Shown: positions 15,230-58,195 of the stretch, piece by piece | Layout of the letters: each line of letters starts with the position of its first letter | Position numbering within the stretch: position 1 is the first letter of the stretch | Source of the DNA: a virus | Virus genome (UHGV): UHGV-1421865 | DNA length: 64,000 bases | Direction: 5' to 3' (one strand) | The notes under the pieces: generated by a model | What the model was told of the DNA's origin: nothing | The model's database searches: none | Seen by the model: only the letters and a program-made list of their open reading frames with translations | Position numbers and translations under genes: made by a program

Positions 15230-15832
15230 ATGAAATTTAAGTATCAACCTCAAACGAAGGAAGAACTCATCCAAATCATCAAAGACGAAACGCAACGTCA
15301 ACTCGATGAGGCGTACGAAAGATACAATGACTTTGAAGAGAACGATGAGGACGACGAGTCGTTTGATGACGAGTATGAGTTGTATGAACAAGAAGGTCTT
15401 GTAACTATCGATCTTAACTTTATCGATGTGTCTAAGATCACAGACATGTCTTATGTGTTCCACGAAGCACTTTCGTACGAGGATCTTGACATCGAGTTTG
15501 ACGATTTCCAAGGTTTCTATCTGTTGATCGACCGCTGGGACGTTAGCAACGTTACGAACATGGAAGGTATGTTCCAAGAGGTTGAGTTTAGCGCTGATTT
15601 GTACGACTGGAACGTGTCCAATGTGAAGAATATGTCTTATATGTTCGATGAGTGTGGACTATTTGATTCTAATTTGTCTAGTTGGGACACGAGCAAAGTA
15701 GAAAAAATGAAAGGCATGTTTGGTGAAGAAAACTACTGTTTCGATGCAGACACAATCAAAGGTTGGGATGTGTCCGGTCTAAAAGATAAAACAGACTACG
15801 AAAGAATTTTAGAACGTCTTAGTGACTGCTGA
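15230..15832 (+). CDS. DUF285-type repeat protein (divergent acidic N-terminus)
   Basis: Repeats 'WDVSNVTNMEGMFQEVEFSADLYDWNVSNVKNMSYMFDECGLFDSNLSSWDTSKVEKMKGMF'. N-terminal D/E-rich segment. Confidence 0.7.
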   Translation: MKFKYQPQTKEELIQIIKDETQRQLDEAYERYNDFEENDEDDESFDDEYELYEQEGLVTIDLNFIDVSKITDMSYVFHEALSYEDLDIEFDDFQGFYLLIDRWDVSNVTNMEGMFQEVEFSADLYDWNVSNVKNMSYMFDECGLFDSNLSSWDTSKVEKMKGMFGEENYCFDADTIKGWDVSGLKDKTDYERILERLSDC

Positions 15833-19056: not shown

Positions 19057-19488
19057 ATGAAGAAAATTGTTTTGACACTGCTCCTACTTTGTGCAGCTTT
19101 CAACCTCTCGGCACAAGACTACTACTTTGACATCTTGCACCCAACGGTGTCATACCGGATGTACATGGCAAATTCCGATACGTACGGTGACTGGAAAGAT
19201 GACTGCCCGGATTTCATTAAAGAGGCTATAGCCTACGAAAACGAGGTGTTGTATTTCCAAGACGGCTTCCGTTTGCGTTATATGAAATTCTTTAATGTGC
19301 AATGGATCTATACTAAGATTGACGGGTGGTTTTATCCTACATTCTACGCCGAGACATTGCGCAAGAATAACGACGGTACTAGTTACGTCATCAAAGTACG
19401 GGCTGTGTATACAGACGTTTCAAAGTCTAATTTGAAGTATCTTAAACTCGTGTATCCGTTTTACGAACTGAAAATCGAACCAAAATGA
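19057..19488 (+). CDS. secreted protein (signal peptide)
   Basis: 'MKKIVLTLLLLCAAFNLSAQ' signal peptide. 143 aa. Confidence 0.5.
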   Translation: MKKIVLTLLLLCAAFNLSAQDYYFDILHPTVSYRMYMANSDTYGDWKDDCPDFIKEAIAYENEVLYFQDGFRLRYMKFFNVQWIYTKIDGWFYPTFYAETLRKNNDGTSYVIKVRAVYTDVSKSNLKYLKLVYPFYELKIEPK

Positions 19489-20649: not shown

Positions 20650-21405
20650 ATGCCTATACACATCACATCTAAGACTAAATCACTAAGGGTACGACCGGCG
20701 TCAAAAGACGAGCTACGGTTCTTGATAAAGGAAGAACTACAATGTCAAGGTCCTGATGCTGATCTAAATTTCATTGATACATCGTTGATTACAGACATGT
20801 CTCATTTGTTTTCTTTCCCATTAGACCTGCATGTACATGTAGGTAACATCAAAATCGACGAGTGGGACACTTCAAAGGTCACAGATATGTCTTATATGTT
20901 TGTAGATTGTCCATGTTTATATTGTGATCCTTCCAGATGGAACGTATCTGGCGTCATTAGTATGGGGTGTATGTTTGGTGGTTGTAGAGAACTTGATTGT
21001 GACTTGTCAAATTGGAATGTCTCTAATGTAGTAGATATATCAAAGATGTTCAAGGACTGTTATCGATTCAGAGGTACAGGATTGCCGGATTGGAATGTAC
21101 AGAGGCTACAGAAGATGGAGAGTGCGTTTAAGCACTGCCATATACTCAATTGTGATTTGTCGGGCTGGGAGTTTTCGAATCCGGTTGATATGTTCTATGC
21201 TTTCGACGGTTGTTATTCATTTCCCGACGATTATAAACCAAAGCAAGTTCATCGTACAGCTACATCTACGCAGTCAATACAGACCGCTATAACAAATCTT
21301 GCGTCATTACAGAACAATGCTATGAGTAGGTGTATTGGTAATAATAGTGCGTTGATTATGAACGAAGAAATGTATAAGGCCTTTATTAGTATTTATTCTG
21401 ATTGA
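20650..21405 (+). CDS. DUF285-repeat paralog family member
   Basis: 'MPIHITSKTKSLRVRPASKDELRFLIKEELQCQGPDADLNFIDTSLITDMSHLF' followed by WxxS.V repeats. Confidence 0.7.
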   Translation: MPIHITSKTKSLRVRPASKDELRFLIKEELQCQGPDADLNFIDTSLITDMSHLFSFPLDLHVHVGNIKIDEWDTSKVTDMSYMFVDCPCLYCDPSRWNVSGVISMGCMFGGCRELDCDLSNWNVSNVVDISKMFKDCYRFRGTGLPDWNVQRLQKMESAFKHCHILNCDLSGWEFSNPVDMFYAFDGCYSFPDDYKPKQVHRTATSTQSIQTAITNLASLQNNAMSRCIGNNSALIMNEEMYKAFISIYSD

Positions 21406-21966: not shown

Positions 21967-23355
21967 ATGCATGATTTAAGAGATTACGTAAATGGAAACG
22001 TTTCTAACGTTTTCGAAGAAGCCGGTAAGCGCGGCCGTCCCAGAAAGAACCCCGCACCGGAGGAGAGTGAATATGATAAAATTAATGGTAAGTCGGCAGA
22101 ATCTAACGGTTCTGGTGGTGCCTATGCTGTGAATCCTCCTGTATCGGCGAAGATTGAAGGATTTAAGCTTCAAAATGAGGGTAAGAATTTCAGTAAAAAC
22201 AAGCGTGAAGTTGCTCGCGCCCTTGTGACCGAAAGACCCTTCTTCATTCAGGGTCGTGCCGGTTGGGGTAAGACATCTGTTGTTCTTGATGTAGCCGGTA
22301 ATCTCGGATATGAAGTGATTGTCTTCTATCTCGATAAGTGTGACGTAGCCGACCTTGCTGGTCGTATCTATGTCGACGAAAATGGTCGCGAAAAGAATAC
22401 GATTCCTGTATTTATTCAGGAAGTTGCAGAAAATACCGACAAGAATTACTTGTTGTTCTTTGACGAAATGAACCAGGCACAGCCCGAGGTGATGAACGCA
22501 CTCATGCCTATTATCCACGAAAGAACGATTGGTGGTAGACATTATGATAATCTTATTTGCGGTGCCGCCGGTAACTTGATGGATGAAAACCTCGGAGGTG
22601 TATCGGAATTGAGTAAGCCACTTGCTGCCCGTTTGAAGAAGATTAACTGGGAATCACACACTGAAGATGCTTGGAAAGACGCGATAGAGCACCTTGTTAA
22701 GAAGCACAAGTTCCCTCAAGAGTTCTTTGATTTCCTTACAAAGGTGGCTCTTGATTGGTTTGATTCACCCCGTGACATCGAACTAAACATTTTGAATATC
22801 ATTGAGATCCTCATTAAAAAGGGTCAAAGTTGGGAAGTCGAGGAATGGAAAGAAGATATTGAAGATAATGTAGTTAGAGCAGAACTCCTAAAGAAATATA
22901 AGGCAGGTGAAAAAATTACTCCAAAGGATGCTGATATTGATCATGATCTCGACGGTAAAGAAGGCCAAGCCGATATTGAACGTCTATCTCGAATGTGCTA
23001 TGACTTAGTTGCTAACGAAGGAGAACTTACGGCGTCCAGAAAGAGTCGTAAGGTAGGTGCCGGTAAGCAAGTACCGGAGAATTTACGTCAACTTATGAAA
23101 GAAGGTATTAGTAAAGGGTATATCCAACTTGCGAGTGAAGGCGATACGATAAACTCTACAAAATACGCTATTTCTGCAGAGAACATTGTAGAAGTCTTCG
23201 TAAATGACGGTAGTGAATTTAATGCCGAAACAATTCAAAAGGTTGTCGATCACCTTACAGAAACGCTTAACTTTAAGTACAATACCGACGATGAATGGAA
23301 AAAGGAAGCTAAGAAATTAAATTTAGTTGACCCGTTGGCACCTGAGACGAAATAA
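21967..23355 (+). CDS. MoxR-like AAA+ ATPase (AAA_5 type)
   Basis: Walker A 'IQGRAGWGKTSVV'. Walker B/sensor 'LLFFDEMNQAQPEVMNALMPIIHE'. N-terminal 'GKRGRPRKNP' AT-hook-like segment. Confidence 0.7.
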   Translation: MHDLRDYVNGNVSNVFEEAGKRGRPRKNPAPEESEYDKINGKSAESNGSGGAYAVNPPVSAKIEGFKLQNEGKNFSKNKREVARALVTERPFFIQGRAGWGKTSVVLDVAGNLGYEVIVFYLDKCDVADLAGRIYVDENGREKNTIPVFIQEVAENTDKNYLLFFDEMNQAQPEVMNALMPIIHERTIGGRHYDNLICGAAGNLMDENLGGVSELSKPLAARLKKINWESHTEDAWKDAIEHLVKKHKFPQEFFDFLTKVALDWFDSPRDIELNILNIIEILIKKGQSWEVEEWKEDIEDNVVRAELLKKYKAGEKITPKDADIDHDLDGKEGQADIERLSRMCYDLVANEGELTASRKSRKVGAGKQVPENLRQLMKEGISKGYIQLASEGDTINSTKYAISAENIVEVFVNDGSEFNAETIQKVVDHLTETLNFKYNTDDEWKKEAKKLNLVDPLAPETK

Positions 23356-23368
23356 AACAGAGTAGAGT

Positions 23369-23773
23369 ATGGTAAGATTATTAGATTTCTTTAAGAATAA
23401 GAATATAAATAATAACTTTATACAACACCTACGTGATCAAGAGGCTGCTAATAGTGATGACCATAATAGTGACGATGCTGAGCAAACGGCATCGTCACCC
23501 AAGGTCGCAGGTTCGAAGGTGATGTATTTTGAGAATGATGACGAGTTTGCTTCTTTTGTTTTTGAACCGGTACGTAAAATAGTTATCAAAACAAACAATA
23601 GAGGAGATGAGTTTGCAGTTGCAGAACCTGTATTGACAAGTTCGTATAAGGCTGCAGAGGCTACAGGTACTCAGTTCTGTGTTATGGATCCTAAATCACA
23701 TGTTAATAAAGACGGCATGTTAGGTTGGGAAGACGTTACACTGAAAATTAACAATGTAAAACGATATAAATAA
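23369..23773 (+). CDS. hypothetical protein between AAA and VWA genes
   Basis: 134-aa ORF. Confidence 0.45.
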   Translation: MVRLLDFFKNKNINNNFIQHLRDQEAANSDDHNSDDAEQTASSPKVAGSKVMYFENDDEFASFVFEPVRKIVIKTNNRGDEFAVAEPVLTSSYKAAEATGTQFCVMDPKSHVNKDGMLGWEDVTLKINNVKRYK

Positions 23774-23776
23774 GTT

Positions 23777-25639
23777 ATGGTAAATCTTTCAAGAAAAACT
23801 GGTTCAGATACGCTCGACGAATACGATGAGTTTAGATATACCAAAACTTCTTTACTATATGCTGCCGAAGCCGATGGAGACCTGGATAAACGTGTAAAGA
23901 TTTTCGATTATATCGACGATGAAAATAACGAAGGAACATTCTACTATGACATGTTGGAGTTTTTTCGTTTCTTAGACCCGTCGGATCCTGACACAAACGG
24001 CCATATTGCGTACACTACACCGGACCATTTGTTGTATTTCAATGCACCAAATGAATACATCAAGAATCCTAGAGAACTTGCACAATGGGACTTTGTATAT
24101 TGTCATGAGTGTTTGCACCAGATTTGGGACACTTTCGCTGTCGGTGAGAAGATCAAGGCAGACGGTCTGGAATACAACCACCGATTGCTGAATATCGCCG
24201 CTGACTGTATCATTAACGACTTCTTGCGTCGCATTGAAAAGAAAGTACCGTTTGAAGAAGGTATTTTCCCCGAGACTATTGAAGAGCAATTTGGTGGTAT
24301 CAAGTATAATCCGAAGAAGGACACACAGTATTCGCTTTATGTAAAGCTTCAAAAATGGTTGAAAGATAACAATGAAGATCTTAATAAGAAAATCAACCAA
24401 GATGAGAAGTTCAAAAAAGCTGTAGAACAGTCTGAGAAACACGAACGCGGTGATGGTCCTAACGACAAACAACCCACCGACTCTCAAGACGGTCAACAAG
24501 GTCAAGGTAGTGACGGTCAAGGCCAACAAGGTCAGTCTGGTGACTCTCAAGACGGTAGTCAACAAGGACAAGGTGGTGACGGTCAGGGCGACGGTGACGG
24601 TCAAAGTGGCAACCAAGACGGTGATCAGCAAGGTCAGAGTGATGGTCAAGGCAGTGACGGTCAAGGACAAGACAGTCAAGGTCAACAAGGTAACCAAGCC
24701 AACCAAGGTAGCGGTTCTAAGAACAACCAAAGCAAGAACGGTGCTGGTGACGGTCAACAAGGACAAGGCAACGGTGACGGTCAAGGTGGTCAAGGTGGTG
24801 CCGGTAAGGGAAACGGAGCCTTAGGTGACGCTAAAGAAATCAGCGCTGCAGAACAAGCCGCTATTCGTGAAAAGGCTCGTAAGGTAATCAACAAGTACAA
24901 AGACGCCATGAGCGGTAACCTCGGTGACTTTATCAAGAAATGTAAGAGTTCTGTAAAGGGTGAATCGCAAGGTATCGACGTCGGTGTTCGTTCCGGTAAC
25001 CATTCTAATTGGAACAAGACATTGACTACAAATATCATGTCTTATGTGAGCCAACGTGTTAGAACTCGTACACAATATGAATCGTCATGGCGTAGAATCA
25101 GTAGACGACAGAATACAGTGAAGCCCGGTGATCTACTGATGAAGGGTAAGAAACGTAAGAAGGACCAGATTAAGGTAAACATTGCGTTCTATATCGACTG
25201 TTCAGGTTCTATGAGTAGCTGTATTGACAATGTATTTGATTCGGCTATCGCTATCGGTGAAGCACTCAAGAAGAACTTCGGACGAGAAGCGTCTAGTTCT
25301 AACGGTGCTATTTCTGAATTTGAATTTAAGACGTTTGTATTTAACGATTCTATACATCCTGTAGAATGGGGTAAACGTTACGGTGCTAGCGGCGGTACAT
25401 TGCCGTTCGACGGTATTGTCGACTATATCAAGGAGAACACTAACGATTATCTTATCAACGTTATTATTACCGACGCTGAATTCGATATTAAGCGAGATGT
25501 AGTAATGGGTATGCTTAATGAGGTGTACGGACTAATTCAGTTTGTTACGAACTCGTCTAATAAGACTATTGAATCTATGGCTATGGGTTCTAAAGGTAAG
25601 CTACAGTACATTGAGGCAGATTCTAACTTCAGTGTCTGA
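23777..25639 (+). CDS. putative metallopeptidase (HExxH) - von Willebrand A domain protein (DUF2201-like partner of MoxR ATPases) with internal Gly/Gln/Asp low-complexity region
   Basis: 'YCHECLHQIWD' HExxH at nt 24104-24118. MIDAS 'IDCSGSMSS' near nt 25195. ~115-aa 'DGQGQQGQSGDSQDG…' repeat region. Confidence 0.7.
   Translation: MVNLSRKTGSDTLDEYDEFRYTKTSLLYAAEADGDLDKRVKIFDYIDDENNEGTFYYDMLEFFRFLDPSDPDTNGHIAYTTPDHLLYFNAPNEYIKNPRELAQWDFVYCHECLHQIWDTFAVGEKIKADGLEYNHRLLNIAADCIINDFLRRIEKKVPFEEGIFPETIEEQFGGIKYNPKKDTQYSLYVKLQKWLKDNNEDLNKKINQDEKFKKAVEQSEKHERGDGPNDKQPTDSQDGQQGQGSDGQGQQGQSGDSQDGSQQGQGGDGQGDGDGQSGNQDGDQQGQSDGQGSDGQGQDSQGQQGNQANQGSGSKNNQSKNGAGDGQQGQGNGDGQGGQGGAGKGNGALGDAKEISAAEQAAIREKARKVINKYKDAMSGNLGDFIKKCKSSVKGESQGIDVGVRSGNHSNWNKTLTTNIMSYVSQRVRTRTQYESSWRRISRRQNTVKPGDLLMKGKKRKKDQIKVNIAFYIDCSGSMSSCIDNVFDSAIAIGEALKKNFGREASSSNGAISEFEFKTFVFNDSIHPVEWGKRYGASGGTLPFDGIVDYIKENTNDYLINVIITDAEFDIKRDVVMGMLNEVYGLIQFVTNSSNKTIESMAMGSKGKLQYIEADSNFSV
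24470..24830 (+). repeat. coding low-complexity/tandem repeat (ggtgacggtcaagg-type units) inside VWA gene
   Basis: Visible DNA and peptide periodicity. Spurious antisense ORFs 23972..24793 and 24450..24824 arise from it. Confidence 0.7.
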
Positions 25640-25720
25640 CTTTATTGAATAACTAAATATAAAAGACGATCTTAATTTTTTGAGGTCGTCTTTTATGATT
25701 TTTAAGATATAATAACAAAT

Positions 25721-26230
25721 ATGTCGATACACATCACATCAAATACAAAACTTCTTAATCCGAAACCGGTCAATAAAGAACAACTAAGGTCTATTATAAG
25801 TGACGAGTTGAAACAACAAGGTCCAGATGCCGATTTGAACCATATTGACACATCTAAGATCACCGATATGTCTAGTTTGTTTATAGATCTCCGTCCAGAA
25901 AATATCAAGATAGACGAGTGGGACGTTTCTAATGTTACTAATATGCGACAGTTATTTATGAACTGTGGTGACCTTGTTGCTGACCTGTCCGACTGGAATG
26001 TATCAAATGTAACAGACATGTACGGTATGTTTTTTAACTGTTATAATTTCAATTCAGATTTGTCCGGTTGGGACGTCGGCAATGTTAAAAATACAAGGTA
26101 TATGTTTTATAGGTGTTATGGATTAAATACAGATTTATCAAATTGGAAACTTAAAAGCGGTTGCTTTACCAATGACATGTTCACCGAAGCCGATAAACAA
26201 CGAATTCCTAGTTGGTACACACGAAGATAA
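25721..26230 (+). CDS. DUF285-repeat paralog family member
   Basis: 'MSIHITSNTKLLNPKPVNKEQLRSIISDELKQQGPDADLNHIDTSKITDMSSLF' plus repeats. Confidence 0.7.
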   Translation: MSIHITSNTKLLNPKPVNKEQLRSIISDELKQQGPDADLNHIDTSKITDMSSLFIDLRPENIKIDEWDVSNVTNMRQLFMNCGDLVADLSDWNVSNVTDMYGMFFNCYNFNSDLSGWDVGNVKNTRYMFYRCYGLNTDLSNWKLKSGCFTNDMFTEADKQRIPSWYTRR

Positions 26231-26698: not shown

Positions 26699-27148
26699 AT
26701 GAACGAACGATTAAAGATTACATCTAATTCTAAATCAGCGGTACTGAGACCTAAATCTAAAAATGAACTAGAACAACTAATACAGCAAGAGTTGGAACGT
26801 CAAGGCCAGGATGCTGACTTGAATCATATCGATACATCACTGATTACAGACATGTCAGCATTGTTTGCTAATTATGGTACTATTACTATTAGAAATATCA
26901 AAATCGACGAATGGGACGTCAGTAATGTGACCGATATGGAGCACATGTTTAGTTTGTGTGAAAAATTCAACTGCGATCTTTCCCATTGGAACACTTCTAA
27001 TGTCACGAATATGAAATACATGTTCTATAGTTGTGAAAATTTTTATTCCGACTTACGAGGTTGGGACGTATCTAATGTGAGAACGTATATAAAATTTGCC
27101 GATTTATGTTCATCGTCATTTGTTAAAAAGATACCGAAGTTCAAATGA
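26699..27148 (+). CDS. DUF285-repeat paralog family member
   Basis: 'ERLKITSNSKSAVLRPKSKNELEQLIQQELERQGQDADLNHIDTSLITDMSALF'. Confidence 0.7.
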   Translation: MNERLKITSNSKSAVLRPKSKNELEQLIQQELERQGQDADLNHIDTSLITDMSALFANYGTITIRNIKIDEWDVSNVTDMEHMFSLCEKFNCDLSHWNTSNVTNMKYMFYSCENFYSDLRGWDVSNVRTYIKFADLCSSSFVKKIPKFK

Positions 27149-27236: not shown

Positions 27237-27929
27237 TCATTTGAATTGAGGTTGTAGCTGCGGATTAGATTTCATCTTGGGGCAGTTCTTGAACATATCT
27301 CCATGTGTCCATACTTTTCGTACATCCCAACTGGATAAATCAGACTCAAATTTTTTACAATACATAAACATACCGTACATATCTTTGACCTTTGAAACAT
27401 CCCAAGTAGACAGATCAGACTCGAACTTAAAACAATGGTCAAATGTTTGAGCCATGTTTGTTACTTTCGATACGTTCCACTTAGACAAATCAGATGTAAA
27501 TTTTTTACAATCTAAAAACATGCCGCCCATATTGGTAACGTTACTGACGTCCCACTCAGAAAGGTCACAGTTGAATTTTGAACAACCGTGGAACATACTG
27601 TCCATGCGTCGTACATTCGACACGTCCCAAGTAGAAAGATCAGAATTGAATTTGCCACAGCCCATGAACATCTCAGACATTTCTTGTACATTAGATGTAT
27701 CCCAGTCGTCGATTTTGATATTTCTAATCTCAAGCTGAGAAAACAAAAATGACATGTCTGTCATCAACGATGTATCAATGAAGTTCAAGTCGGCGTCCGG
27801 ACCTTGTCGTTGTAGCTCTTGTTTTATGATAGGTCGTATTTCTTCGTACGTCGTAGGTTTGGGACGGTATAAAGGTCTAGTCTTAGACGTGATCTTTATT
27901 CGTTCTGTGATGTATTGTTGTATACTCAT
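27237..27929 (-). CDS. DUF285-repeat paralog family member
   Basis: N-cap 'MSIQQYITERIKITSKT…QGPDADLNFIDTS'. ~6 repeats. C-tail 'CPKMKSNPQLQPQFK'. Confidence 0.75.
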   Translation of the reverse strand: MSIQQYITERIKITSKTRPLYRPKPTTYEEIRPIIKQELQRQGPDADLNFIDTSLMTDMSFLFSQLEIRNIKIDDWDTSNVQEMSEMFMGCGKFNSDLSTWDVSNVRRMDSMFHGCSKFNCDLSEWDVSNVTNMGGMFLDCKKFTSDLSKWNVSKVTNMAQTFDHCFKFESDLSTWDVSKVKDMYGMFMYCKKFESDLSSWDVRKVWTHGDMFKNCPKMKSNPQLQPQFK

Positions 27930-27946: not shown

Positions 27947-28654
27947 TTAGTTTTTGAATTTTGGTTGTAGCTGTGGATTGGATTCCATCTTAGGACAATG
28001 CTTAAACATTTGTGAATGTGTTAGTACATTCGAAACATCCCAACCGGACAAGTCAGATTCAAAATTAGGACATTCACGGAACATATTGTTCATATTTTCA
28101 ACTTTTGAAACATCCCAACCAGACAAATCAGATTCAAACTTGGAACAACTGTGAAAAGTCTCATTCATCGCGGTTACCTTCGAAACATCCCAACCAGACA
28201 AATCAGAATTGAAATTATCACAATCAGCAAACATTGCTTGCATGTCTTCTAATTTAGAAACGTTCCAATGAGATAGGTCAGTGTTGAAGCTAGAACAGGC
28301 ATAAAACATGCTATTTGTATTCCATACTTTTGAAACATCCCAACGAGATAGATCGCAATTGAAATTATCACAACTAGCAAACATGTCACGCATAGTCATT
28401 ACATTATGTGTGTCCCACTCGTCAATTTGGATGTTTCTTATATCGAGGTCTTCAAATAATGCAGACATGTCATAAATCTTAGATGTATCGATATGGTTCA
28501 AATCGGCATCAGGACCTTGCTCTTCTAACTCTTGTTCTATGATAGACCGCAGCTCATTTTTACTTTTTGGAAACAGTGTACGTTCTGTTTGTTTAAGAGA
28601 TCGTGAATTTGATGTTATCTTTAATCGTTCTGTGATGAAATTTTGTAGACTCAT
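27947..28654 (-). CDS. DUF285-repeat paralog family member
   Basis: N-cap 'MSLQNFITERLKITSNS…'. C-tail 'CPKMESNPQLQPKFKN'. Confidence 0.75.
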   Translation of the reverse strand: MSLQNFITERLKITSNSRSLKQTERTLFPKSKNELRSIIEQELEEQGPDADLNHIDTSKIYDMSALFEDLDIRNIQIDEWDTHNVMTMRDMFASCDNFNCDLSRWDVSKVWNTNSMFYACSSFNTDLSHWNVSKLEDMQAMFADCDNFNSDLSGWDVSKVTAMNETFHSCSKFESDLSGWDVSKVENMNNMFRECPNFESDLSGWDVSNVLTHSQMFKHCPKMESNPQLQPKFKN

Positions 28655-29491: not shown

Positions 29492-30295
29492 TTATATCTT
29501 ATTACGTCTAGCTTTCGGTCTCAACTTAGCGTTATCGTACATTTTAGGACATCCTTTGAATATACTGTTTTTATTTACTTTACCGACATGTAAGTCAGAT
29601 AAGTCCCAACCGGACAGGTCCGACTCGAATACCTTACAACCTTCGAACATACCAGTGATATTAAATGTACCACGCATATCCCATCTAGAAAGGTCTGAAG
29701 TAAATTTATAACAGTTCTTAAATGTTTGTCTAAAATTAGTTGTCTTTGATACATTCCAGTCGGACAGGTCGCTTTCAAAGTTTATGCAGTTATAGAACAT
29801 ATTTTCCATACTTGTAACATTCGATACGTCCCATTTAGATAGATCAGAATTGAATTTGACACAACTAAAAAATGTACCAAATAATCCGGTAACCTTAGAC
29901 ACATCCCATCTTGAAAGATCACTATTGAACTTAATACAATTATAGAACATAAGTTTTATATCTGTTACATTACCAGTGTCCCAACGAGATAGGTCTGCGT
30001 TGAAATTTCTACATTCTTCGAACATACCGAACATATCTGTTACATTACCAGTGTCCCACTCGTCTATTTTGATGTTACCTACATTTTTATAAGCAAACAA
30101 ATTGTTCATATCCGTGACCTTAGATACGTCGATATGGTTTAAGTCAGCATCGGGACCTTGTGCTTCTAATTCGTCTTCTATCATCTCAATAAGTTCTGAC
30201 CTGTCTTGGGGAAACAACGTGCATTCTGTTTGTTTAAGTGATCTTGTCTTAGAAGTTATTTTAAGTCGTTCTGTGATGAATTTTGATAGTGACAT
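29492..30295 (-). CDS. DUF285-repeat paralog family member
   Basis: 'MSLSKFITERLKITSKTRSL…'. 7-8 repeats. C-tail variant 'CPKMYDNAKLRPKARRNKI'. Confidence 0.75.
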   Translation of the reverse strand: MSLSKFITERLKITSKTRSLKQTECTLFPQDRSELIEMIEDELEAQGPDADLNHIDVSKVTDMNNLFAYKNVGNIKIDEWDTGNVTDMFGMFEECRNFNADLSRWDTGNVTDIKLMFYNCIKFNSDLSRWDVSKVTGLFGTFFSCVKFNSDLSKWDVSNVTSMENMFYNCINFESDLSDWNVSKTTNFRQTFKNCYKFTSDLSRWDMRGTFNITGMFEGCKVFESDLSGWDLSDLHVGKVNKNSIFKGCPKMYDNAKLRPKARRNKI

Positions 30296-30333: not shown

Positions 30334-31185
30334 CTATGTGTTGTCAAATTTAGGATGAAGCTCCCGTTCAAATTCCATATTAGGACACTCGGCAAACATA
30401 TTATCATGTTTAATAACATTAGAAACGTCCCACATCGACAAGTCAGACCTAAAATTAGAACATCCTCTGAACATCCAACGCATCTCCGTTACATTCGATA
30501 CGTTCCATCCTGATAAATTGGCGTCGAACACCCTACAAGATACAAACATACCATACATATCCTTTACTTTTGAAACATTCCACTTAGATAGTTCGCTATT
30601 GAAATTTCTACATTCATAGAACATGTGTGACATGTTCGTCACATTTGAAGTGTCCCATATTGAAAGATCTGAATTGAATTTTTTACAGTTATAGAACATA
30701 CTCTTCATTTTAGTCACATTAGAAACGTCCCAACCGGACAAATTAGATTTGAATGAATCACAATTATCAAACATCCAACGCATATCTATTACATTCCGTG
30801 TGTCCCAATGTGATAAATCGCAATTGAACGCTCTACAACCTTCGAACATAGCATACATATTCGTCACATTCCTAACATCCCAACCTGACAAGTCACAATT
30901 GAACTTTCTACATTCTCGAAACATACCCTGCATATTCGTCACATTAGAGACATCCCACTGGTCGATTTTGATATTTCCTACATTAACCTTGACCTGTGGG
31001 AATAAATCTCTCATATTTGTAATACCAGAGACATCTATATGGTTCAAATCAGCATCCGTACCTTGTTGGAATAGTTCTTGTTTTATGATAGTTAGAAGCT
31101 CAGATTTTGTTTTAGGCTTCGGTCTATATAATTGGGTATCAGACGTAATCTTTAGACGTTCTACAATATATCTTTGAAGTGACAT
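30334..31185 (-). CDS. DUF285-repeat paralog family member (longest in the cluster, ~9 repeats)
   Basis: 'MSLQRYIVERLKITSDTQ…'. C-tail 'CPNMEFERELHPKFDNT'. Confidence 0.75.
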   Translation of the reverse strand: MSLQRYIVERLKITSDTQLYRPKPKTKSELLTIIKQELFQQGTDADLNHIDVSGITNMRDLFPQVKVNVGNIKIDQWDVSNVTNMQGMFRECRKFNCDLSGWDVRNVTNMYAMFEGCRAFNCDLSHWDTRNVIDMRWMFDNCDSFKSNLSGWDVSNVTKMKSMFYNCKKFNSDLSIWDTSNVTNMSHMFYECRNFNSELSKWNVSKVKDMYGMFVSCRVFDANLSGWNVSNVTEMRWMFRGCSNFRSDLSMWDVSNVIKHDNMFAECPNMEFERELHPKFDNT

Positions 31186-31191
31186 ATAAAA

Positions 31192-31965
31192 TCATTTGAA
31201 TTTAGGTTGAAGTTGGCGATCAGCACGCATCTTAGGGCAGTTATTAAACATTTGCGAATGTGTTTTTACTTTCGAGACATCCCACCCCGATAAATCAGAC
31301 TCGAAAATTTTACAATCACTAAACATCTCGCTCATATTTGCCACATTTGAAACATCCCAACTAGATAAATCTGATTCGAATTTTATACAACCTTCGAACA
31401 TAGCATACATATTCGTCACATTACTGACATTCCAACTAGATAAGTCTGATGTAAAACTCCTGCAGTAAAGAAACATCTTACTCATATTTTCTACATTGGA
31501 CACTTGTGAAGCCCATTTAGACAGATCAGATTCGAATTTATTACAGCTACTAAACATTCCCCTCATATTTGTAACATTAGAGACATTCCATTTAGAAAGA
31601 TCTGAGTTGAATTTATTACAATTCGAGAACATGCCTTCCATATTTTCAACCCTTGATACGTCCCAACTAGATAAATCGGCAGTGACATAAAAACAGTGCA
31701 TAAACATTCCCTTCATATTTGTAACATTAGAAGTATCCCAATCGTCTATCTTTATGTTCTTTATACCGTCTATACCCTTAAATAGTTCAGACATATCTGT
31801 AATCTCTGATGTATCGATAAAGTTCAAATCAGCATCTGGACCTTGTCGTTCTATTTCGGCCTTTATTATATCTATAAGATCTTCTTTTGTAGTAGGTCTC
31901 AGTACCGCTGATTTAGTATCGGACGTAATCTTTAGACGTTCGTTGACAAAATTTGAAAGTGACAT
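31192..31965 (-). CDS. DUF285-repeat paralog family member
   Basis: 'MSLSNFVNERLKITSDTKSAVLRPTTKEDLIDII…'. C-tail 'CPKMRADRQLQPKFK'. Confidence 0.75.
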   Translation of the reverse strand: MSLSNFVNERLKITSDTKSAVLRPTTKEDLIDIIKAEIERQGPDADLNFIDTSEITDMSELFKGIDGIKNIKIDDWDTSNVTNMKGMFMHCFYVTADLSSWDVSRVENMEGMFSNCNKFNSDLSKWNVSNVTNMRGMFSSCNKFESDLSKWASQVSNVENMSKMFLYCRSFTSDLSSWNVSNVTNMYAMFEGCIKFESDLSSWDVSNVANMSEMFSDCKIFESDLSGWDVSKVKTHSQMFNNCPKMRADRQLQPKFK

Positions 31966-34153: not shown

Positions 34154-35023
34154 TTAGTAGTCTTCCTCTTCATCCTCGTCATAAGTTACTTTTGAAAAAT
34201 CAGGCATGTTTTTCTTTTTCATACTCTTACATTTATCAAGCATACCATCAATACTACGTACATCCATTAGATCCCACTTCGATAAGTCAGTATCAAGTTT
34301 TTCACAACCGTAAAACATACTGGTCAATTCTATTGCACTTGCAATATCCCATTTCGATAGATCACAATTGAGGTTCTTACACATATAGAACATATAACCC
34401 ATATAAGCTACCCTTCTAACATTCCATTTGGAAAGATCAGAATTAAAGTTTACGCACCGACTAAACATACCGTGCATATTTTCTACTTTCGACACGTCCC
34501 ATTTAGATAGGTCTGAGTTAAATTTTTGGCAGGAGGCAAATAGACTGTGCATATTTTCTACTTTCGAAACATTCCAAGCTGACAAGTCAGATTCGAATTC
34601 GTGACAAGCAAAGAACATTTCGGTCATTGAAATAACATTCGACACGTCCCATTTCGAAAGGTCTGATTTAAATTTATAACAATTGCAAAACATCTCTTGC
34701 ATATAAGTTACCTTAGAAACGTCCCAACTAGATAAGTCAGCATTGAAATTCTTACAATCTTCAAACATGTATGACATATTAGTGACGTTAGAAGTGTCCC
34801 ACTGGTCGATTTTGATATTTCTTATATTCAATTTATTAAACAACCAAGCCATATCCGTGATCTTAGACGTGTCGATAAAGTTCAAATCGGCGTCAGGACC
34901 TTGTTCTTTTAGTTGCTCTACTATTAGCTTACGAAGTTCTTTTATATTCTTAGGCCTATTCTTATTGCCGAAAAGTGAACCAAAAGATAATTTCTCCACT
35001 ATATAATTTGATAGTACTTCCAT
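34154..35023 (-). CDS. DUF285-repeat paralog family member (long, acidic C-terminus)
   Basis: N-cap 'LRKLIVEQLKEQGPDADLNFIDTSKITDMAWLF'. ~8 repeats. C-terminal 'KCKSMKKKNMPDFSKVTYDEDEEEDY'. Confidence 0.7.
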   Translation of the reverse strand: MEVLSNYIVEKLSFGSLFGNKNRPKNIKELRKLIVEQLKEQGPDADLNFIDTSKITDMAWLFNKLNIRNIKIDQWDTSNVTNMSYMFEDCKNFNADLSSWDVSKVTYMQEMFCNCYKFKSDLSKWDVSNVISMTEMFFACHEFESDLSAWNVSKVENMHSLFASCQKFNSDLSKWDVSKVENMHGMFSRCVNFNSDLSKWNVRRVAYMGYMFYMCKNLNCDLSKWDIASAIELTSMFYGCEKLDTDLSKWDLMDVRSIDGMLDKCKSMKKKNMPDFSKVTYDEDEEEDY

Positions 35024-48408: not shown

Positions 48409-51400
48409 TTATTTATCCTTAACAGACGCGCTGAGTACACCGCGACGATGGATAGTGAGTTCTTGTACCATCTTACCGCAACCGAAGCCGGGTTCAATTT
48501 CAGTAGAGATAATAGCAAACTCATTCTCTATCAGTTCATTAGTGTTATTCGACTCGTCCATCACGTTACGGAAGGCTTCGATACCGCCGTTACTTTGTGT
48601 AACAGAGCAAATTTGGTTCGCCCTGTCGAGAATGGCATTGCGTGTAATGGTGTTGTTGAATTCCCACTGGTACGACTGCAGCACCTTTTCGATTTCGTCT
48701 TGGAGATAAATAACCAATTCTCGAACATTGACACGAGAAAGTGCGCTCAACGGGGTCTGTTTCGCCGTTTGGTTGGCATTGATAAACGTACCGAAGTTCG
48801 GTTTGTATACCATGCAGTTCACACCGTAAGGTTCGATGATCTGTAATTCGTCGTTAGAATAACGATAATCGGGACCGGTGAGTCCTGGGGCAGAAATATG
48901 ACCATAATTAGGACCGGCGACGATGAAGTACGGCTGTCTCGATGTGTATTTATCGATAAATAAGTTCGATACAAGACCTGCACTGGGGATTACGTCGTCG
49001 ATATAACCGTCCGAGAACTTCAGCGGCGAATAGAAAGCGACGAAAGAAGCACCTTCGTTATCGGCAGGCAAGCTGAATTTGATACTTGACGGCTTACGCT
49101 TATTGTTACCTTCTACGACGTATTTAACATTAAATATACCATTTTGGTCGGTAAACGACGCATAAGGACATTTAACAAAGTCGCGAACCGCCGGGAAGTT
49201 ACCGATACAAAACGCACTCTGTTTTTCACGACACAGATAACTTAGTACACTCTTCAGCGACGACGTCGGATAACTTTGGAACGTGTCTACAACATAACGG
49301 TAGTCGATTTCACTCTTATTAAGTAATCCGGTACGCAGTCCCTTGTAATCCGTAAGCGCGGAAAGAATGAAATTCTGCCATTGTAGCTTAGCGAACATAT
49401 TGGTACTCGTCGGGCGATCGTTCTTATAAGTATAACCTTCAAGATACTGTGGTGTCATCGTACCAATTTCCTGGTTGAGAGGATTGTCAATACGAATAAG
49501 GCAACCGTTGTTCTTTAACGATTTAGGACCGTCGACGGGACTATCTATATTAAATAAAGTCACCTTACCGTCATCGTCGTTCTTGTTCGTCTCAGTATCT
49601 GCAACGGCACCGCTCATCGGTTGTCCGGAGAACATGATGTAGTTTCGGCCGTCGTCGGTAACACCAATTTCTGTAACATACACGTTATCGTAGTAGTTAT
49701 CGGTGTCCTTTTCGTCGTAGTCACCGTCGTGGCTATTGTCCAACGCACCGTCGAGACCGAGGAAACAATCGCCTTCTTTAATAACTTGAATAAGTGTATC
49801 GTCGATAACGTCGTGCTTGTTAACCCAAGCGTACTGTTTGAGTCCGTTGATTTCTACCTTGGCATATTCCCATGCGTCGTCGGCATAGTCGATAAACGAT
49901 ACAGAGGCACCGTAAACACTGTTCTTGAACTTGTCTTCGTTGACGTACTGTGTGATTACATCGGGGCGAACCTTTACAAAACTAACGCGAATATCATTAA
50001 CATCGTCGATAAGATAGTCTACTAACGTGCTGTCTGTATTTTGTAGTTTAAGATTGGTAATAGCACTAATTACAGATGTTGGGCCGTGGAACGGATTGTT
50101 AATATCGGCATAAGGATCCTTTCCGGAAGGGAAATACGTCGTATTCTTCTTCCGTTCGAGATTCACACTATGATAAACGATATTACCGTCTTTGTCATAC
50201 AGCGCAATATCCGTATTGTCGACCGGAGCGGCACCGGGATTGGTATCTTTATCGTATTTGACATTTACATACTTCACAGGAACACCGAATGCCTTTGCTG
50301 CTTTTAGAAGCTCTTGTTTCGTCTTAAATGCAAACTTTGCCTTTACTCTGTGTGCGGCATCGAGACCGATTTGTGATAGTTCTACAACGAATGTACCTTC
50401 CTTTGCATCGTAAGGTACACTGGCGTCACCACCTTCGACCTTACTAACATAAAGTGAACCGTAGATACCGCGGCGGTCGGTAGAGAATGCTTGTTTTGCA
50501 CTGATAGTATATAGCTTATGACCGTCGCTAGATTCTGTATCGGGAACAAACTTAACGTCGATAACATTGGGATAGAACGATACCTTGTCTGCGATAACAG
50601 GGGCATTTGTATTACCCAACACACTGGTCACCGCGGTACCCCCGTAGATGTTACCAAGTGTTAATTTATGTTGCTTATCACCTTTATCAGTCGGATCGAG
50701 AACAGGAATCTTTGAACGTCCGCTAAGGTCGATATTCGCAGTCCCGTCGTCTAACATGTCTACATTAAACGACATCATCATATTATGAATATGCTGGTCG
50801 GCGTTAAATACGGCATCTAAGGACATATAAGAACCTTGTTTGTTCTTAAAGAAAGGAATCAAACAACCGACATAGTGTCCAAGTGCATTACTCGTACCGT
50901 CGTTGAACATGGCATCCAACGTATCGACAGGCTCACCGAAAGCGTCGAGAACAAACGGGCGAACGTTTAATACGGCCTCTTTCTCTGCATCGTCGGTAGA
51001 GACACTAAAATAGTTCTTCAACGTCTGCGACGCCAGTACCTGTTTCGCCGTAAAACGACCGGAGAATACGTACACCTCTGCAAAAAAGTCACTCAGAAGC
51101 GAATTCTTGAACGGTTCGAGATATTCGGGCATATCGTCTTGACGATCGCTATACCAGTCGTTTACGGTTATATTATACTGTGATACCTTCGACCCTGAAG
51201 CCTTTCGGATAAAATAGGTCGCCGATGTACTTTTTGTACCTGTCGTCGCGATATTGATGTAACCGTCCATCGCACGGTTTTTGGTATCTGGCAGGTTATT
51301 GAGTTTGTCGGCATTGAGCTCCCAGAAACGAGTAGTATCGTAAACATCTTCGACGCGGAGCTTAACAGTTCTAATCGGGTCGAATTTGCTGTTAAAATCT

Positions 51401-51723
51401 GTCGAGATAGTAGAAGCACCGACTGTTTCGCCGTCGAACTTCTTGAGATTCAAACAAATAATAGGGGACTTCGTCAACATCTGAAGTGCAAGACGGTGGA
51501 AATAAATGCCCCGGCGCTCCAACTTCTTCGAAACATCACCGAACAGTTGACGGAAGACTTGAGGATCCTTTACGTATACCGGTATATTGAAAGGGCCCTT
51601 CTCAGAATAACCTACAACAAGACGGAGAATCTGTGTGTCTTGGTTCAATATAGTAGACTTATCGAACACAACACGGTAGATACCTGCAGCCTTAAACTGT
51701 TGTAAATAAATAGGTATTGCCAT
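48409..51723 (-). CDS. tail sheath protein (T4 gp18-like, enlarged to 1104 aa)
   Basis: N-terminal 'GYSEKGPFNIPVYVKDPQVFRQLFG' resembles gp18 'GKFQWGPAFQIKQVTNEVDLVNTFG'. C-terminal 'NEFAIISTEIEPGF' resembles gp18 'NEFVATFYIQPAR'. Followed by a tube-like gene. Confidence 0.55.
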   Translation of the reverse strand: MAIPIYLQQFKAAGIYRVVFDKSTILNQDTQILRLVVGYSEKGPFNIPVYVKDPQVFRQLFGDVSKKLERRGIYFHRLALQMLTKSPIICLNLKKFDGETVGASTISTDFNSKFDPIRTVKLRVEDVYDTTRFWELNADKLNNLPDTKNRAMDGYINIATTGTKSTSATYFIRKASGSKVSQYNITVNDWYSDRQDDMPEYLEPFKNSLLSDFFAEVYVFSGRFTAKQVLASQTLKNYFSVSTDDAEKEAVLNVRPFVLDAFGEPVDTLDAMFNDGTSNALGHYVGCLIPFFKNKQGSYMSLDAVFNADQHIHNMMMSFNVDMLDDGTANIDLSGRSKIPVLDPTDKGDKQHKLTLGNIYGGTAVTSVLGNTNAPVIADKVSFYPNVIDVKFVPDTESSDGHKLYTISAKQAFSTDRRGIYGSLYVSKVEGGDASVPYDAKEGTFVVELSQIGLDAAHRVKAKFAFKTKQELLKAAKAFGVPVKYVNVKYDKDTNPGAAPVDNTDIALYDKDGNIVYHSVNLERKKNTTYFPSGKDPYADINNPFHGPTSVISAITNLKLQNTDSTLVDYLIDDVNDIRVSFVKVRPDVITQYVNEDKFKNSVYGASVSFIDYADDAWEYAKVEINGLKQYAWVNKHDVIDDTLIQVIKEGDCFLGLDGALDNSHDGDYDEKDTDNYYDNVYVTEIGVTDDGRNYIMFSGQPMSGAVADTETNKNDDDGKVTLFNIDSPVDGPKSLKNNGCLIRIDNPLNQEIGTMTPQYLEGYTYKNDRPTSTNMFAKLQWQNFILSALTDYKGLRTGLLNKSEIDYRYVVDTFQSYPTSSLKSVLSYLCREKQSAFCIGNFPAVRDFVKCPYASFTDQNGIFNVKYVVEGNNKRKPSSIKFSLPADNEGASFVAFYSPLKFSDGYIDDVIPSAGLVSNLFIDKYTSRQPYFIVAGPNYGHISAPGLTGPDYRYSNDELQIIEPYGVNCMVYKPNFGTFINANQTAKQTPLSALSRVNVRELVIYLQDEIEKVLQSYQWEFNNTITRNAILDRANQICSVTQSNGGIEAFRNVMDESNNTNELIENEFAIISTEIEPGFGCGKMVQELTIHRRGVLSASVKDK

Positions 51724-54805: not shown

Positions 54806-55441
54806 TCAAAGTGTCTTGTTAAGTCTGTCCTCAAATACCTTGTTCGTGTCTCTCAACATTTCAGCCATGTGACCTACTGTATGAAAGGTGATGTCTGTAT
54901 ACCCGTAGTCCTTTTGAAGAACCATAAACGGATACATCACCGCTCGTTTTAGACCCAATTTATTAAGGACGCCGTCTGCGACATCTGAGTGTAGTTCGAA
55001 TTTGTAATTTAATAGTTTGTCGTAACAATTGTTATAAACAACTATAAAATGTGTCGCCCAACACCATGTTATGTCCCATAGACCTTCTTTATCGGTATTT
55101 CTATTCGGATTAGAAGTACCGTATATACCACCGTGGAGAATATCATAACCGGCAGATTCGCAGTAGTTTACATATTGTAAGAATGTATTCTCATTATAAT
55201 AATCAGTAAAATATGCGTCATCTTCGACGAGTATGCACTTCTCGTAGCCGTTTTTCTTTGCATCGGCTATACAATTCATCATCGATAGCCACAAACCGTA
55301 ACGCCGATTGTCATCCAAAAAGACACACTGTGTCATTTGTACATCAAATTCCGACTTGTTACTGAACTGCCTTACAACGTCAGCGTACCTGTCCGGACGA
55401 CGATCTTTGTTACTTATAATGTATGTTTTAATTCCGTTCAT
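54806..55441 (-). CDS. glycosyltransferase family 25-like protein
   Basis: 'KTYIISNKDRRPDRYADV' resembles the GT25 N-terminal motif (I(I/V)NLxxxxxRR). 211 aa. Lies between the scaffold and capsid genes. Confidence 0.4.
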   Translation of the reverse strand: MNGIKTYIISNKDRRPDRYADVVRQFSNKSEFDVQMTQCVFLDDNRRYGLWLSMMNCIADAKKNGYEKCILVEDDAYFTDYYNENTFLQYVNYCESAGYDILHGGIYGTSNPNRNTDKEGLWDITWCWATHFIVVYNNCYDKLLNYKFELHSDVADGVLNKLGLKRAVMYPFMVLQKDYGYTDITFHTVGHMAEMLRDTNKVFEDRLNKTL

Positions 55442-57424: not shown

Positions 57425-58195
57425 TCAAGCAAATTTAGGTTTCATTTTTGGCTTCATCTTAGGGCATTTATAAAACATTCGTGACTTGTCTGTCACATTC
57501 GATACGTCCCAACCGGATAAGTCAGTATCTAGACTAATACAATTGTAAAACATATAGCTCATATTTTCTGCATTGGACGTGTTCCAGGTGGACAAATCAG
57601 TATCTAAACTACTACAGCCATAAAACATGTGTGACAAGTTTATTGCATTGCTGATGTCCCATTTTGATAGATTAGAATTGAATTTTGTACAATCACTGAA
57701 CATCCTGACTGTGTTTGTCACACTACTAACATCCCAATCAGATAAGTCACTGTTAAAACTTCGACAACCATAAAAAATATAAGTCATGGTTTCGACATTT
57801 GATGTATTCCAATTTTCTAACCCTTTACCTTCAAAATTCATACAATTATTGAACATACCACGCATGTTTTTCACATTGGACACTCGTGTCCCCCAATCAG
57901 ACAAATCGACATTGAATTCTTTCTGCTCCATAAACATGTAAGACATGTCTACAACATTACTAACGTCCCATTGGTCTATTTTGATATTTTCGATATGATA
58001 AACTCTAAACAAGTACGACATGTCCGTAATAAGAGACGTGTCGATATGGTTCAAATCGGCATCGGGACCTTGACGTTTCAATTCTTCTTCTATGATAGCT
58101 TTGAGTTCGTCTTTTGTTGTCGGCCGTATTAGTTCAAGTGGTTTAGACTTAGATGTAATCTTTAACCGTTCGTTCACGAAATTTGATAGTGACAT
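57425..58195 (-). CDS. DUF285-repeat paralog family member
   Basis: 'MSLSNFVNERLKITSKSKPLELIRPTTKDELKAIIEEELKRQGPDADLNHIDTS'. C-tail 'CPKMKPKMKPKFA'. Confidence 0.75.
   Translation of the reverse strand: MSLSNFVNERLKITSKSKPLELIRPTTKDELKAIIEEELKRQGPDADLNHIDTSLITDMSYLFRVYHIENIKIDQWDVSNVVDMSYMFMEQKEFNVDLSDWGTRVSNVKNMRGMFNNCMNFEGKGLENWNTSNVETMTYIFYGCRSFNSDLSDWDVSSVTNTVRMFSDCTKFNSNLSKWDISNAINLSHMFYGCSSLDTDLSTWNTSNAENMSYMFYNCISLDTDLSGWDVSNVTDKSRMFYKCPKMKPKMKPKFA

Follow-up and report, generated by a model that had tools for sequence, protein, structure and literature searches.

A three-gene operon for a MoxR-class ATPase, a small companion protein and a DUF2201-like adaptor in a large uncultured phage

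The stretch analysed here (the window) comprises 64,000 nucleotides of the virus genome UHGV-1421865. Positions 21967-25639 of its plus strand encode a MoxR-class AAA+ ATPase, a small conserved protein and a 620-amino-acid adaptor, in which a remote DUF2201_N-like HExxH domain is joined through a long disordered linker to a VWA domain. The products most probably constitute a remodelling machine of the MoxR/VWA type, by analogy with solved systems, whose adaptor would carry a tethered domain resembling zinc peptidases. Modules of this kind are known computationally and are widespread. The window contains a divergent form with a third gene, a greatly expanded linker and additions to the ATPase.

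Operon structure and the ATPase

As judged from their layout, the three co-directional genes form an operon closed by a terminator-like hairpin. The intergenic gaps are 13 nucleotides between the ATPase stop codon and gene 2, and 3 nucleotides between gene 2 and the start of gene 3. Terminator-like sites are numerous in the region, 11 being found against 4.3 expected. The main features are as follows.

21967-23355, plus strand: gene 1, MoxR-class (AAA_5) AAA+ ATPase, 462 amino acids (list of open reading frames, Pfam, PHROG, AlphaFold, hhalign)
23369-23773, plus strand: gene 2, small conserved protein, 134 amino acids (list of open reading frames, profile search of loci)
23777-25639, plus strand: gene 3, adaptor, 620 amino acids, with DUF2201_N-like HExxH domain, disordered linker, candidate finger and VWA/MIDAS domain (open reading frame, alignment, AlphaFold, hhalign)
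25658-25697, plus strand: terminator-like hairpin with an 18-bp stem and a T-run, 19 nucleotides past the stop codon of gene 3

Public gene calls on contigs with an identical protein predict the same three products. The trio is linked in 14 distinct loci and occurs in two gene orders, according to a profile search of the fetched loci. The window, loci L001-L003 and 11 of the 16 IMG/VR loci carry all three genes on one strand. The initial annotation of this DNA, made from the letters alone, placed the reading frames of the ATPase and of the 620-amino-acid protein correctly, and all the motifs that it quoted (GRAGWGKTS; FDEMNQA, within LLFFDEMNQA; HECLH; DCSGS; the G/Q/D stretch) were located by translation. 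It described a gene pair. The ATPase and its partner are indeed linked, with the third gene of 134 amino acids in between.

Gene 1 matches Pfam AAA_5 (PF07728) at amino acids 92-189 with 33.6 bits against a gathering cut-off of 22, and PF07728 is present in nearly all of 120 ATPase homologues among the matches listed. The corresponding PHROG is phrog_1297 'ATPase' (1.3e-25). The conserved positions below refer to an alignment of 45 homologues with 32-87% identity; pLDDT is the predicted local distance difference test of the AlphaFold model.

22027-22056, plus strand: AT-hook-like motif KRGRPRKNPA, amino acids 21-30, in a disordered N-terminal tail (translation; pLDDT <50)
22252-22278, plus strand: Walker A, GRAGWGKTS; G96 and A98-K102 invariant
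22360-22410, plus strand: helix-2 insert, beta-hairpin GRIYVDENGREKNTIPV, predicted pore element; AlphaFold strands 134-136 and 142-144, G132 invariant
22450-22479, plus strand: Walker B, LLFFDEMNQA; D166 and E167 invariant
22564-22782, plus strand: sensor 1 (AAGN203), Arg finger region (PLAAR222) and sensor 2 (SPR269); N203, R222, P268 and R269 invariant
23074-23352, plus strand: clade-specific C-terminal domain, amino acids 370-462 (pLDDT ~85-90)

The AlphaFold model of the ATPase has a pLDDT of 79, falling below 50 over amino acids 1-32. In addition to the helix-2 insert, it contains a pre-sensor-1 hairpin with short strands 187-188 and 191-192 before beta-4. The top solved structural matches are CbbQ2 (6l1q, E = 2e-10) and NorQ (9qh4, 9qh7 and 9qh8, E = 4e-10 to 1e-9), with a target-normalised TM-score of ~0.6, and dynein, McrB, Lon and ClpA rank lower. 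In sequence comparison, midasin is the solved protein nearest to the ATPase (E = 9e-18). Cultured-phage ATPases that adjoin DUF2201 genes align with its core (hhalign 99.6%, E = 1.2e-23). Given the AAA_5 score, the invariant motifs, the hairpins in the model and the CbbQ2/NorQ top matches, the MoxR-class assignment made by the initial annotation is sound. Gene 1 is thus a MoxR-class AAA+ ATPase whose catalytic motifs are intact as read from the alignment, and which appears from the model to be closest to CbbQ/NorQ. By analogy with NorQ (PMC13036017), its helix-2 insert would touch the VWA finger of the adaptor. Two other identities were rejected: GvpN scores 22 bits against a cut-off of 267, and AbiO, Nhi and mad8 from PADLOC are weak matches only; in each case this is generic P-loop similarity.

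The two ends of the ATPase were compared with those of six other ATPases, four from cultured phages and two from distant loci. An AT-hook-like motif (GRPRK or RPxGSKNK, for example EGRPKGSKNK) is present in 30 of the 45 family members, and all six comparison ATPases lack it. The Pfam AT_hook model is not significant on this tail (E = 0.98). We regard the tail as a possible lead for DNA binding. The C-terminal domain, where G384, S403, N406, E421 and P456 are invariant across the family, has no counterpart in the six comparison ATPases.

The adaptor, its linker and the small protein

The adaptor family comprises 180 proteins at E <= 0.001 among 8,000 candidates scored, of which 113 were aligned with a mean column identity of 36%. 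The alignment consists of two conserved blocks around a non-alignable region. The AlphaFold model is folded at amino acids 1-222, disordered at 223-353 (pLDDT ~30) and folded again at 354-620. Counts in the following lines are out of the 113 aligned homologues.

23777-24442, plus strand: N-terminal zincin-like domain, amino acids 1-222, remote member of DUF2201_N (pLDDT ~85-90; Pfam matches of homologues; hhalign)
24104-24118, plus strand: HExxH (HECLH), putative zinc site and catalytic Glu; H110, E111 and H114 invariant in 113/113
24191-24223, plus strand: second conserved motif, NIAADCIINDF; N139, D143, C144 and N147 invariant in 113/113
24443-24835, plus strand: disordered low-complexity linker rich in G, Q and D, amino acids 223-353 (~131 amino acids; AlphaFold pLDDT ~30)
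25070-25162, plus strand: basic beta-hairpin, candidate pore-inserting finger, amino acids 432-462; AlphaFold strands 434-440 and 454-460
25163-25636, plus strand: VWA domain with complete MIDAS (Foldseek, conservation, hhalign)
25196-25210, plus strand: MIDAS residues D474-x-S476-x-S478 (DCSGS), invariant in 113/113; the further MIDAS residues are T541 (25397-25399; 106/113) and D566 (25472-25474; 112/113)

The HExxH and MIDAS motifs are not due to chance, since they are invariant although the mean column identity is 36%. The domains were identified through homologues. DUF2201_N (PF13203) is matched by 14 of 26 homologues scanned, and four of them (P0065, P0084, P0093 and P0107) score 25.4-37.8 bits against a gathering cut-off of 23.2; PF09967 is matched by none of the 26. 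Profiles of the two domains were compared by hhalign with six DUF2201-type proteins, two from distant IMG/VR loci and four from cultured phages, the latter confirmed by Pfam (E-values as low as 4e-43 for DUF2201_N and 2e-25 for the VWA-like DUF2201). The N-domain profile aligns with 97.7% probability (E = 1.3e-12), HExxH and N.A.D..IN being in register. For the C-domain profile the probability is 97.8% (E = 8e-13), and its pre-MIDAS segment, D.SGSM, GGT and TD are in register. Significance was reached after the domains had been split and a small target alignment used; the full-length profile, linker included, gave no significant hhalign match to a single N4-like protein.

Within the N-domain, NIAADCIINDF is in register with the DUF2201_N motif N.AaD..IN, and the third metal ligand may come from it. 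The basic hairpin directly precedes strand beta-1 of the VWA domain, has invariant R443 and G451 (G457 is conserved in 112/113), and is in register with the pre-MIDAS segment of canonical DUF2201 proteins. Its position is also that of the NorD finger, amino acids 403-448 (PMC13036017).

In a Foldseek search of the PDB with the adaptor model, all but one of the 50 highest-ranked matches are VWA domains or proteins containing one, and NorD (9qhg_G, E = 8.9e-5) is the first. Among the predicted viral structures of BFVD, phage proteins called 'VWA-like domain containing' or 'metallopeptidase domain protein' match both domains over the full length, the best of them from Bacillus phage PBS1 (E = 2e-11). 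The only PHROG match is a weak one to phrog_1314 'HNH endonuclease' (1.5e-4). This candidate identity was rejected, as it was traced to a mislabel of COG3864 proteins. A PADLOC scan of the adaptor gave nothing usable.

Together, the Pfam matches of the homologues, the alignment of both domains, the VWA-only fold of the C-domain and the first rank of NorD bear out the DUF2201-type HExxH/VWA partner proposed by the initial annotation. The assignment of the N-domain to a remote DUF2201_N HExxH domain is supported by sequence profiles. That of the whole adaptor to its family is supported by remote homology and structure prediction, not by direct matches to hidden Markov models.

The spacer between the domains is a disordered linker typical of MoxR adaptors, unusually long and fast-evolving. 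Over amino acids 220-355 it consists of 31% G, 24% Q and 13% D and is net acidic, with 21 D/E against 7 K/R. Each of the 113 homologues has a low-complexity linker, whose length varies from 59 to 303 amino acids with a median of 168; in other subclades it is rich in A, K, D and E instead of G and Q. In close relatives the linker is 97-136 amino acids long and 56-92% identical, with 11-39 gap columns, against 94-98% identity and no gaps in the folded domains. Thus the presence of the linker is conserved and its sequence is not, as it is ubiquitous yet diverges far faster than the folded domains. The spacer had been described as hypervariable and ~115 amino acids long. The comparison of its length and sequence among relatives agrees with the former, and the length is to be corrected to ~131.

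The linker DNA is weakly tandem-repetitive (TRF periods 6-30, scores 33-74). Two other open reading frames overlap it: one of 273 amino acids on the minus strand (23972-24793) and one of 124 amino acids in another frame of the plus strand (24450-24824). Their translations are monotonous (T/L/V-rich, K/V/T-rich). Both appear to be artefacts of the stop-free repetitive GGN-CAA-GAC codons rather than genes.

The domain content bears on a further reading, a chelatase pair like CobS/CobT or BchI/BchD (compare cyanophage cobS), or else a McrBC-like AAA_5 restriction module. We consider it highly improbable. The ATPase has a weak match to phrog_249 'porphyrin biosynthesis' (7.4e-7), one BFVD match is named 'cobalamin biosynthesis protein', and McrB is among the structural neighbours of the ATPase. 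Chelatase D subunits likewise carry an acidic linker before the VWA domain. However, the match to phrog_1297 (1.3e-25) is far stronger, the N-domain of the adaptor is DUF2201_N with HExxH and not a CobT or AAA-type domain, and there is neither a nuclease domain nor a CobN-like gene nearby. The chelatase, McrBC-like, GvpN-like and VMAP-ternary readings (the last is discussed below) all fail on domain content.

The small protein encoded by gene 2 is a conserved companion that travels with the ATPase and adaptor genes. Its core of ~85 amino acids (positions 50-134) has the motif YF(E/D)NDDEF near the start, F54, D57 and F60 being invariant across distant members, and is preceded by a conserved clade-specific extension at amino acids 1-49. 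In a library of 1.84 billion proteins there are 28 representatives, all stand-alone and 85-137 amino acids long, with no fusions. The gene order is permuted to small protein, ATPase, adaptor in L012 (3210-7199) and L019 (717-5804); the adaptor of L019 has up to 1043 amino acids. The profile search did not find the small gene in L016 and L017, in the distant two-gene loci L020 and L021, or in any of the four cultured phages inspected. The ATPases of L016 and L017 (3172-6965) are longer, 549-558 amino acids, and contain no detectable fused domain of the small protein. Searches of Pfam, NCBIfam, PHROG, PADLOC and the PDB gave no usable match for the protein itself, the best Pfam hit, Ig_NFAM1 (E = 0.061), being non-significant. 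Its acidic invariant motif, adjoining a MIDAS protein, suggests a MIDAS ligand, an adaptor or a regulator.

The presence of a third gene also recalls the vWA-MoxR-VMAP systems of Kaur et al. 2020 (PMC7159879), which have three components and sometimes peptidase domains fused to the vWA protein. The operon could accordingly be read as a conflict module of this ternary type, or as a counter-defence device that destroys a host immune protein, with the small protein as the sensor-like third component. The three components built on MoxR and vWA and the peptidase fused to the vWA protein, which is rare in the effector position according to Kaur et al. (PMC7159879), are in line with this reading, as are the phage origin and the fast evolution of the linker. 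However, VMAPs are large tripartite proteins (PMC7159879), whereas the third component here has 134 amino acids and no significant Pfam match (best E 0.061, to a family other than VMAP). Effector arrays are absent, the module is phage-encoded, and PADLOC finds nothing: there is no significant match for genes 2 and 3, and the matches for gene 1 are the weak generic P-loop ones. Moreover, the folded domains are 94-98% conserved in close relatives and diversification is confined to the unstructured linker. A conflict or counter-defence role is unlikely.

Related modules, proposed mechanism and candidate clients

MoxR proteins encoded with a metallopeptidase-vWA protein in jumbo phages were described by Iyer et al. 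2021, who proposed a role in virion assembly through the analogy with the Acidianus two-tailed virus (ATV) proteins p618 and p892 (PMC7824862). Their example in Agrobacterium phage Atu_ph07 was confirmed: ASV44728.2 contains DUF2201_N and DUF2201, and its partner ATPase is ASV44729.1. A tblastn search with an N4-like DUF2201 protein yielded at least 644 phage records, many of them annotated 'HNH endonuclease' (the phrog_1314 label), from N4-like phages, Asteriusvirus, Vequintavirinae-like phages, Atu_ph07 and others. The protein of Salmonella phage FSL SP-058 (L005, 4983-6119) matches DUF2201_N with 4e-43 and DUF2201 with 2e-25, and no other Pfam model matched it at E <= 0.01. In the literature, searches on DUF2201 and COG3864 turned up no experimental or functional work.

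The pairs of cultured phages (COG0714 and COG3864) are of the same kind as the proteins of the window: an AAA_5-type ATPase is encoded directly upstream of a protein with HExxH DUF2201_N and a VWA-like MIDAS domain. Examples are SP058_00175/00180 of FSL SP-058, the pairs of Asteriusvirus G17 and 121Q, that of Cronobacter phage CR8, and ASV44729.1/ASV44728.2 of Atu_ph07. However, the four cultured phages inspected have two-gene units without the small middle gene, a partner of 378-518 amino acids and a short connector, and their ATPases have neither the AT-hook-like tail nor the C-terminal domain. The clade of the window is too divergent from these versions for direct detection by Pfam or tblastn.

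A weakly DUF2201_N-like HExxH region was also observed in an 851-amino-acid protein of the Prevotella phage Lak-A1 (MK250016.1; L004, 4437-6992; E = 0.0035 in Pfam and 1e-10 with the family profile). Within 5 kb of this Lak megaphage locus, neither a MoxR-like ATPase nor a homologue of the small protein was found, even when stop codons were ignored.

Among solved systems, NorQ/NorD and CbbQ/CbbO provide the best structural matches, NorQ and CbbQ2 for the ATPase and NorD for the adaptor. The two models independently lead to NorQ and NorD, which are halves of a single solved machine. NorD resembles the adaptor in total length (~638 versus 620 amino acids) and in layout, with an N-domain, an unresolved linker of ~130-150 amino acids, a finger (in the adaptor, a candidate one) just before beta-1 and the VWA/MIDAS domain; residues 242-393 of its linker are unresolved, and the finger, 403-448, lies just before the MIDAS strand (PMC13036017, PMC9976466). 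Cryo-electron microscopy of NorQD places the finger in the pore and shows the linker remodelled; under a published proposal, ATP hydrolysis twists the unit formed by the VWA domain and its finger and also stretches the linker (PMC13036017, PMC9976466). On the other hand, the N-domain of NorD is not an HExxH zincin-like domain, sequence identity to the window proteins is only 10-18%, and NorQ and CbbQ, of ~260 amino acids, have neither the N-terminal tail nor the C-domain.

NorQD and CbbQO function in metal insertion or enzyme reactivation, with no proteolysis. A corresponding reading, in line with metal insertion as the classical role of MoxR proteins, is that the pair is an activase that matures or reactivates a phage metalloenzyme, such as ribonucleotide reductase, and that HExxH is a metal-binding or docking module and not a protease. 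The nearest solved relatives, NorQD and CbbQO, do insert iron or reactivate Rubisco, and the pair recurs beside nrd genes, glutaredoxin, thymidylate synthase and NDK. However, the catalytic Glu of HExxH is invariant in 113/113 homologues, as expected of a hydrolase and not of a mere metal carrier. Besides, neighbourhoods vary between loci without constant linkage to one enzyme, and the N4-like phages with the pair have no single common metalloenzyme neighbour. We give the activase reading a low probability.

Midasin/Rea1, the closest solved sequence to the ATPase, has its MIDAS domain on a tether, a long acidic stretch of low complexity. Unlike the window proteins, it is one giant eukaryotic chain in which six AAA modules are fused, and it lacks a peptidase. 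The MIDAS/VWA domain of midasin is docked on the ring and places a loop in the pore (PMC13036017).

The mechanism that we propose for the remodelling machine follows these analogies. By analogy with NorQD, CbbQO and Rea1, the ATPase would form a hexamer. The basic hairpin next to the MIDAS strand would enter the pore of the ring and touch the helix-2 inserts, and the MIDAS metal would hold an acidic residue of the target protein. ATP hydrolysis would then twist or pull the VWA domain, so that the target is remodelled, and the HExxH domain on its flexible leash of ~130 amino acids would cleave it. The small protein, by our guess, may be a regulator, or an adaptor presenting its invariant acidic NDDEF motif to the MIDAS.

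The domain identities, the conservation of motifs, the operon structure and the linkage of the genes are established. Several points weigh against the mechanistic reading. By analogy we infer the hexamer, the ATPase and peptidase activities and the contacts among the three proteins. Searches with hidden Markov models, called for by the initial annotation, back the ATPase (AAA_5) and do not directly back the 620-amino-acid protein, which matches nothing in Pfam or NCBIfam even at E <= 1. When solved structures were searched with a profile of the full-length alignment, the only match was a sub-threshold one to the VWA domain of ITIH4 (E = 0.2), and the Foldseek matches to VWA domains are moderate (E = 1e-4 to 1e-3, TM ~0.4-0.55). 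As no solved relative of the N-domain was found, the term peptidase is taken from the HExxH conservation and from the label in Pfam and the literature, and the sole evidence for the finger is predicted secondary structure. Gene neighbourhood, used below, is a weak guide to timing. Finally, the only viral pair studied experimentally, ATV p618/p892, acts in the development of the virion tail (PMC4124505), and virion assembly is also what Iyer et al. proposed for the jumbo-phage pair (PMC7824862).

The client of the machine could be a virion protein or an intracellular one of the replication phase, either a host protein or a non-structural phage protein. We lean towards the latter, at slightly short of an even chance. 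In the morphogenesis alternative, which is possible and on balance doubtful, the same machine would serve as a chaperone-protease by which structural proteins are folded and trimmed in the course of assembly. Its precedent is the ATV pair, also a virus-encoded MoxR ATPase (p618) with a VWA partner (p892). The p618 protein is part of the virion and binds proteins of the tail, and p892 stimulates its ATPase (PMC4124505). The comparison with the window was made at the level of domain class; the ATV pair has no peptidase domain (PMC7824862), belongs to an archaeal virus and includes a virion component. The proposal of Iyer et al. concerns group 2.2 jumbo phages and the same domain architecture, that of Atu_ph07 (PMC7824862), and the pair of G17 is flanked by genes annotated as structural.

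On the other side, the phage of the window has its own dedicated prohead protease of the gp21 type, and the operon lies outside the morphogenesis block, in a metabolic block on the opposite strand. The pairs of Atu_ph07, G17, an N4-like phage and L003 are found beside glutaredoxin and RNA ligase genes, thymidylate synthase, dUTPase and replication genes, or NDK. In all, five unrelated lineages have genes of nucleotide metabolism or replication as the neighbours. In G17 the neighbours are annotated as 121Q structural proteins and the pair itself is not. The pair is also common to N4-like podoviruses, T4-related jumbo myoviruses and the clade of the window despite very different virions. These observations underlie the preference for a non-virion client. 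The preference is only modest because the ATV precedent and the proposal of Iyer et al. favour a virion client.

A further reading is that the clade-specific additions turn the module into an ATP-driven protease tethered to DNA. The ring would be parked on AT-rich DNA by the AT-hook-like tail, and perhaps by the C-domain, the small NDDEF protein would be a MIDAS-docking adaptor or gatekeeper, and the leashed peptidase would sweep its surroundings, stripping off or cleaving host proteins bound to DNA, for instance nucleoid or defence factors. This reading is improbable as a whole; such a protease would be a phage analogue of the Cdc48-Wss1/SPRTN partnership.

Genome setting and implications

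The window belongs to a large phage of the myovirus type, and relatives are located on contigs of 210-228 kb. It contains genes for the tail sheath (48409-51723), a gp23-type major head protein (phrog_138, 52988-54784) and the gp21-type prohead protease (phrog_207, 55438-57351, minus strand), as well as NrdD, NrdA, a FolD-like enzyme, a sigma-like factor and lysozymes. The operon is in a plus-strand block with the nrdD, nrdA, FolD-like and sigma-like genes, whereas the minus strand carries the genes for head, sheath and protease. The prohead protease homologue has 637 amino acids; the phrog_207 match covers amino acids 7-320 only, and the C-terminal half has no assignment beyond a weak match to a holin PHROG at amino acids 449-493.

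A search of 50,697 GenBank phage records with the module region (blastn) and with the 620-amino-acid protein (tblastn) produced no match. The description of the phage as T4-like in the initial annotation is thus true only loosely: it has the gp23-type head protein, the gp21-type protease and the sheath in common with that group, and no match among the GenBank phages.

The operon is flanked on both sides by paralogous small repeat proteins, in the clade of the window and not in distant relatives. They are encoded on the plus strand at 15230-15832, 20650-21405, 25721-26230 and 26699-27148, and on the minus strand at 27237-27929, 27947-28654, 29492-30295, 30334-31185, 31192-31965, 34154-35023 and 57425-58195. 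In this large expansion four genes were confirmed as Pfam DUF285 (BspA-like repeats 'DxSxWDVSNV') and two more were recognised by eye; five further genes have PHROGs 17273, 22899 and 3649 in common. A reading frame of 143 amino acids (19057-19488, plus strand) starts with MKKIVLTLLLLCAAFNLSAQ, similar to a signal or lipoprotein leader of the Bacteroidota type. This leader, the DUF285 genes and the similarity to Lak phage are hints of a Bacteroidota host.

The module of the window overturns nothing known. MoxR/VWA machines are widespread, although the client is known for just a handful of them. The DUF2201 branch with a peptidase is present in at least 644 sequenced phage genomes, and its recognition under the frequent label 'HNH endonuclease' gives a cleaner annotation for hundreds of phage genes. 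NorQD offers a concrete structural template for the design of mutants. In the clade of large uncultured phages represented by the window, a third conserved protein has joined the module, along with a disordered leash of great length and additions that may bind DNA, and the module yields a few testable predictions on how an AAA+ motor may be coupled to a tethered protease during infection.

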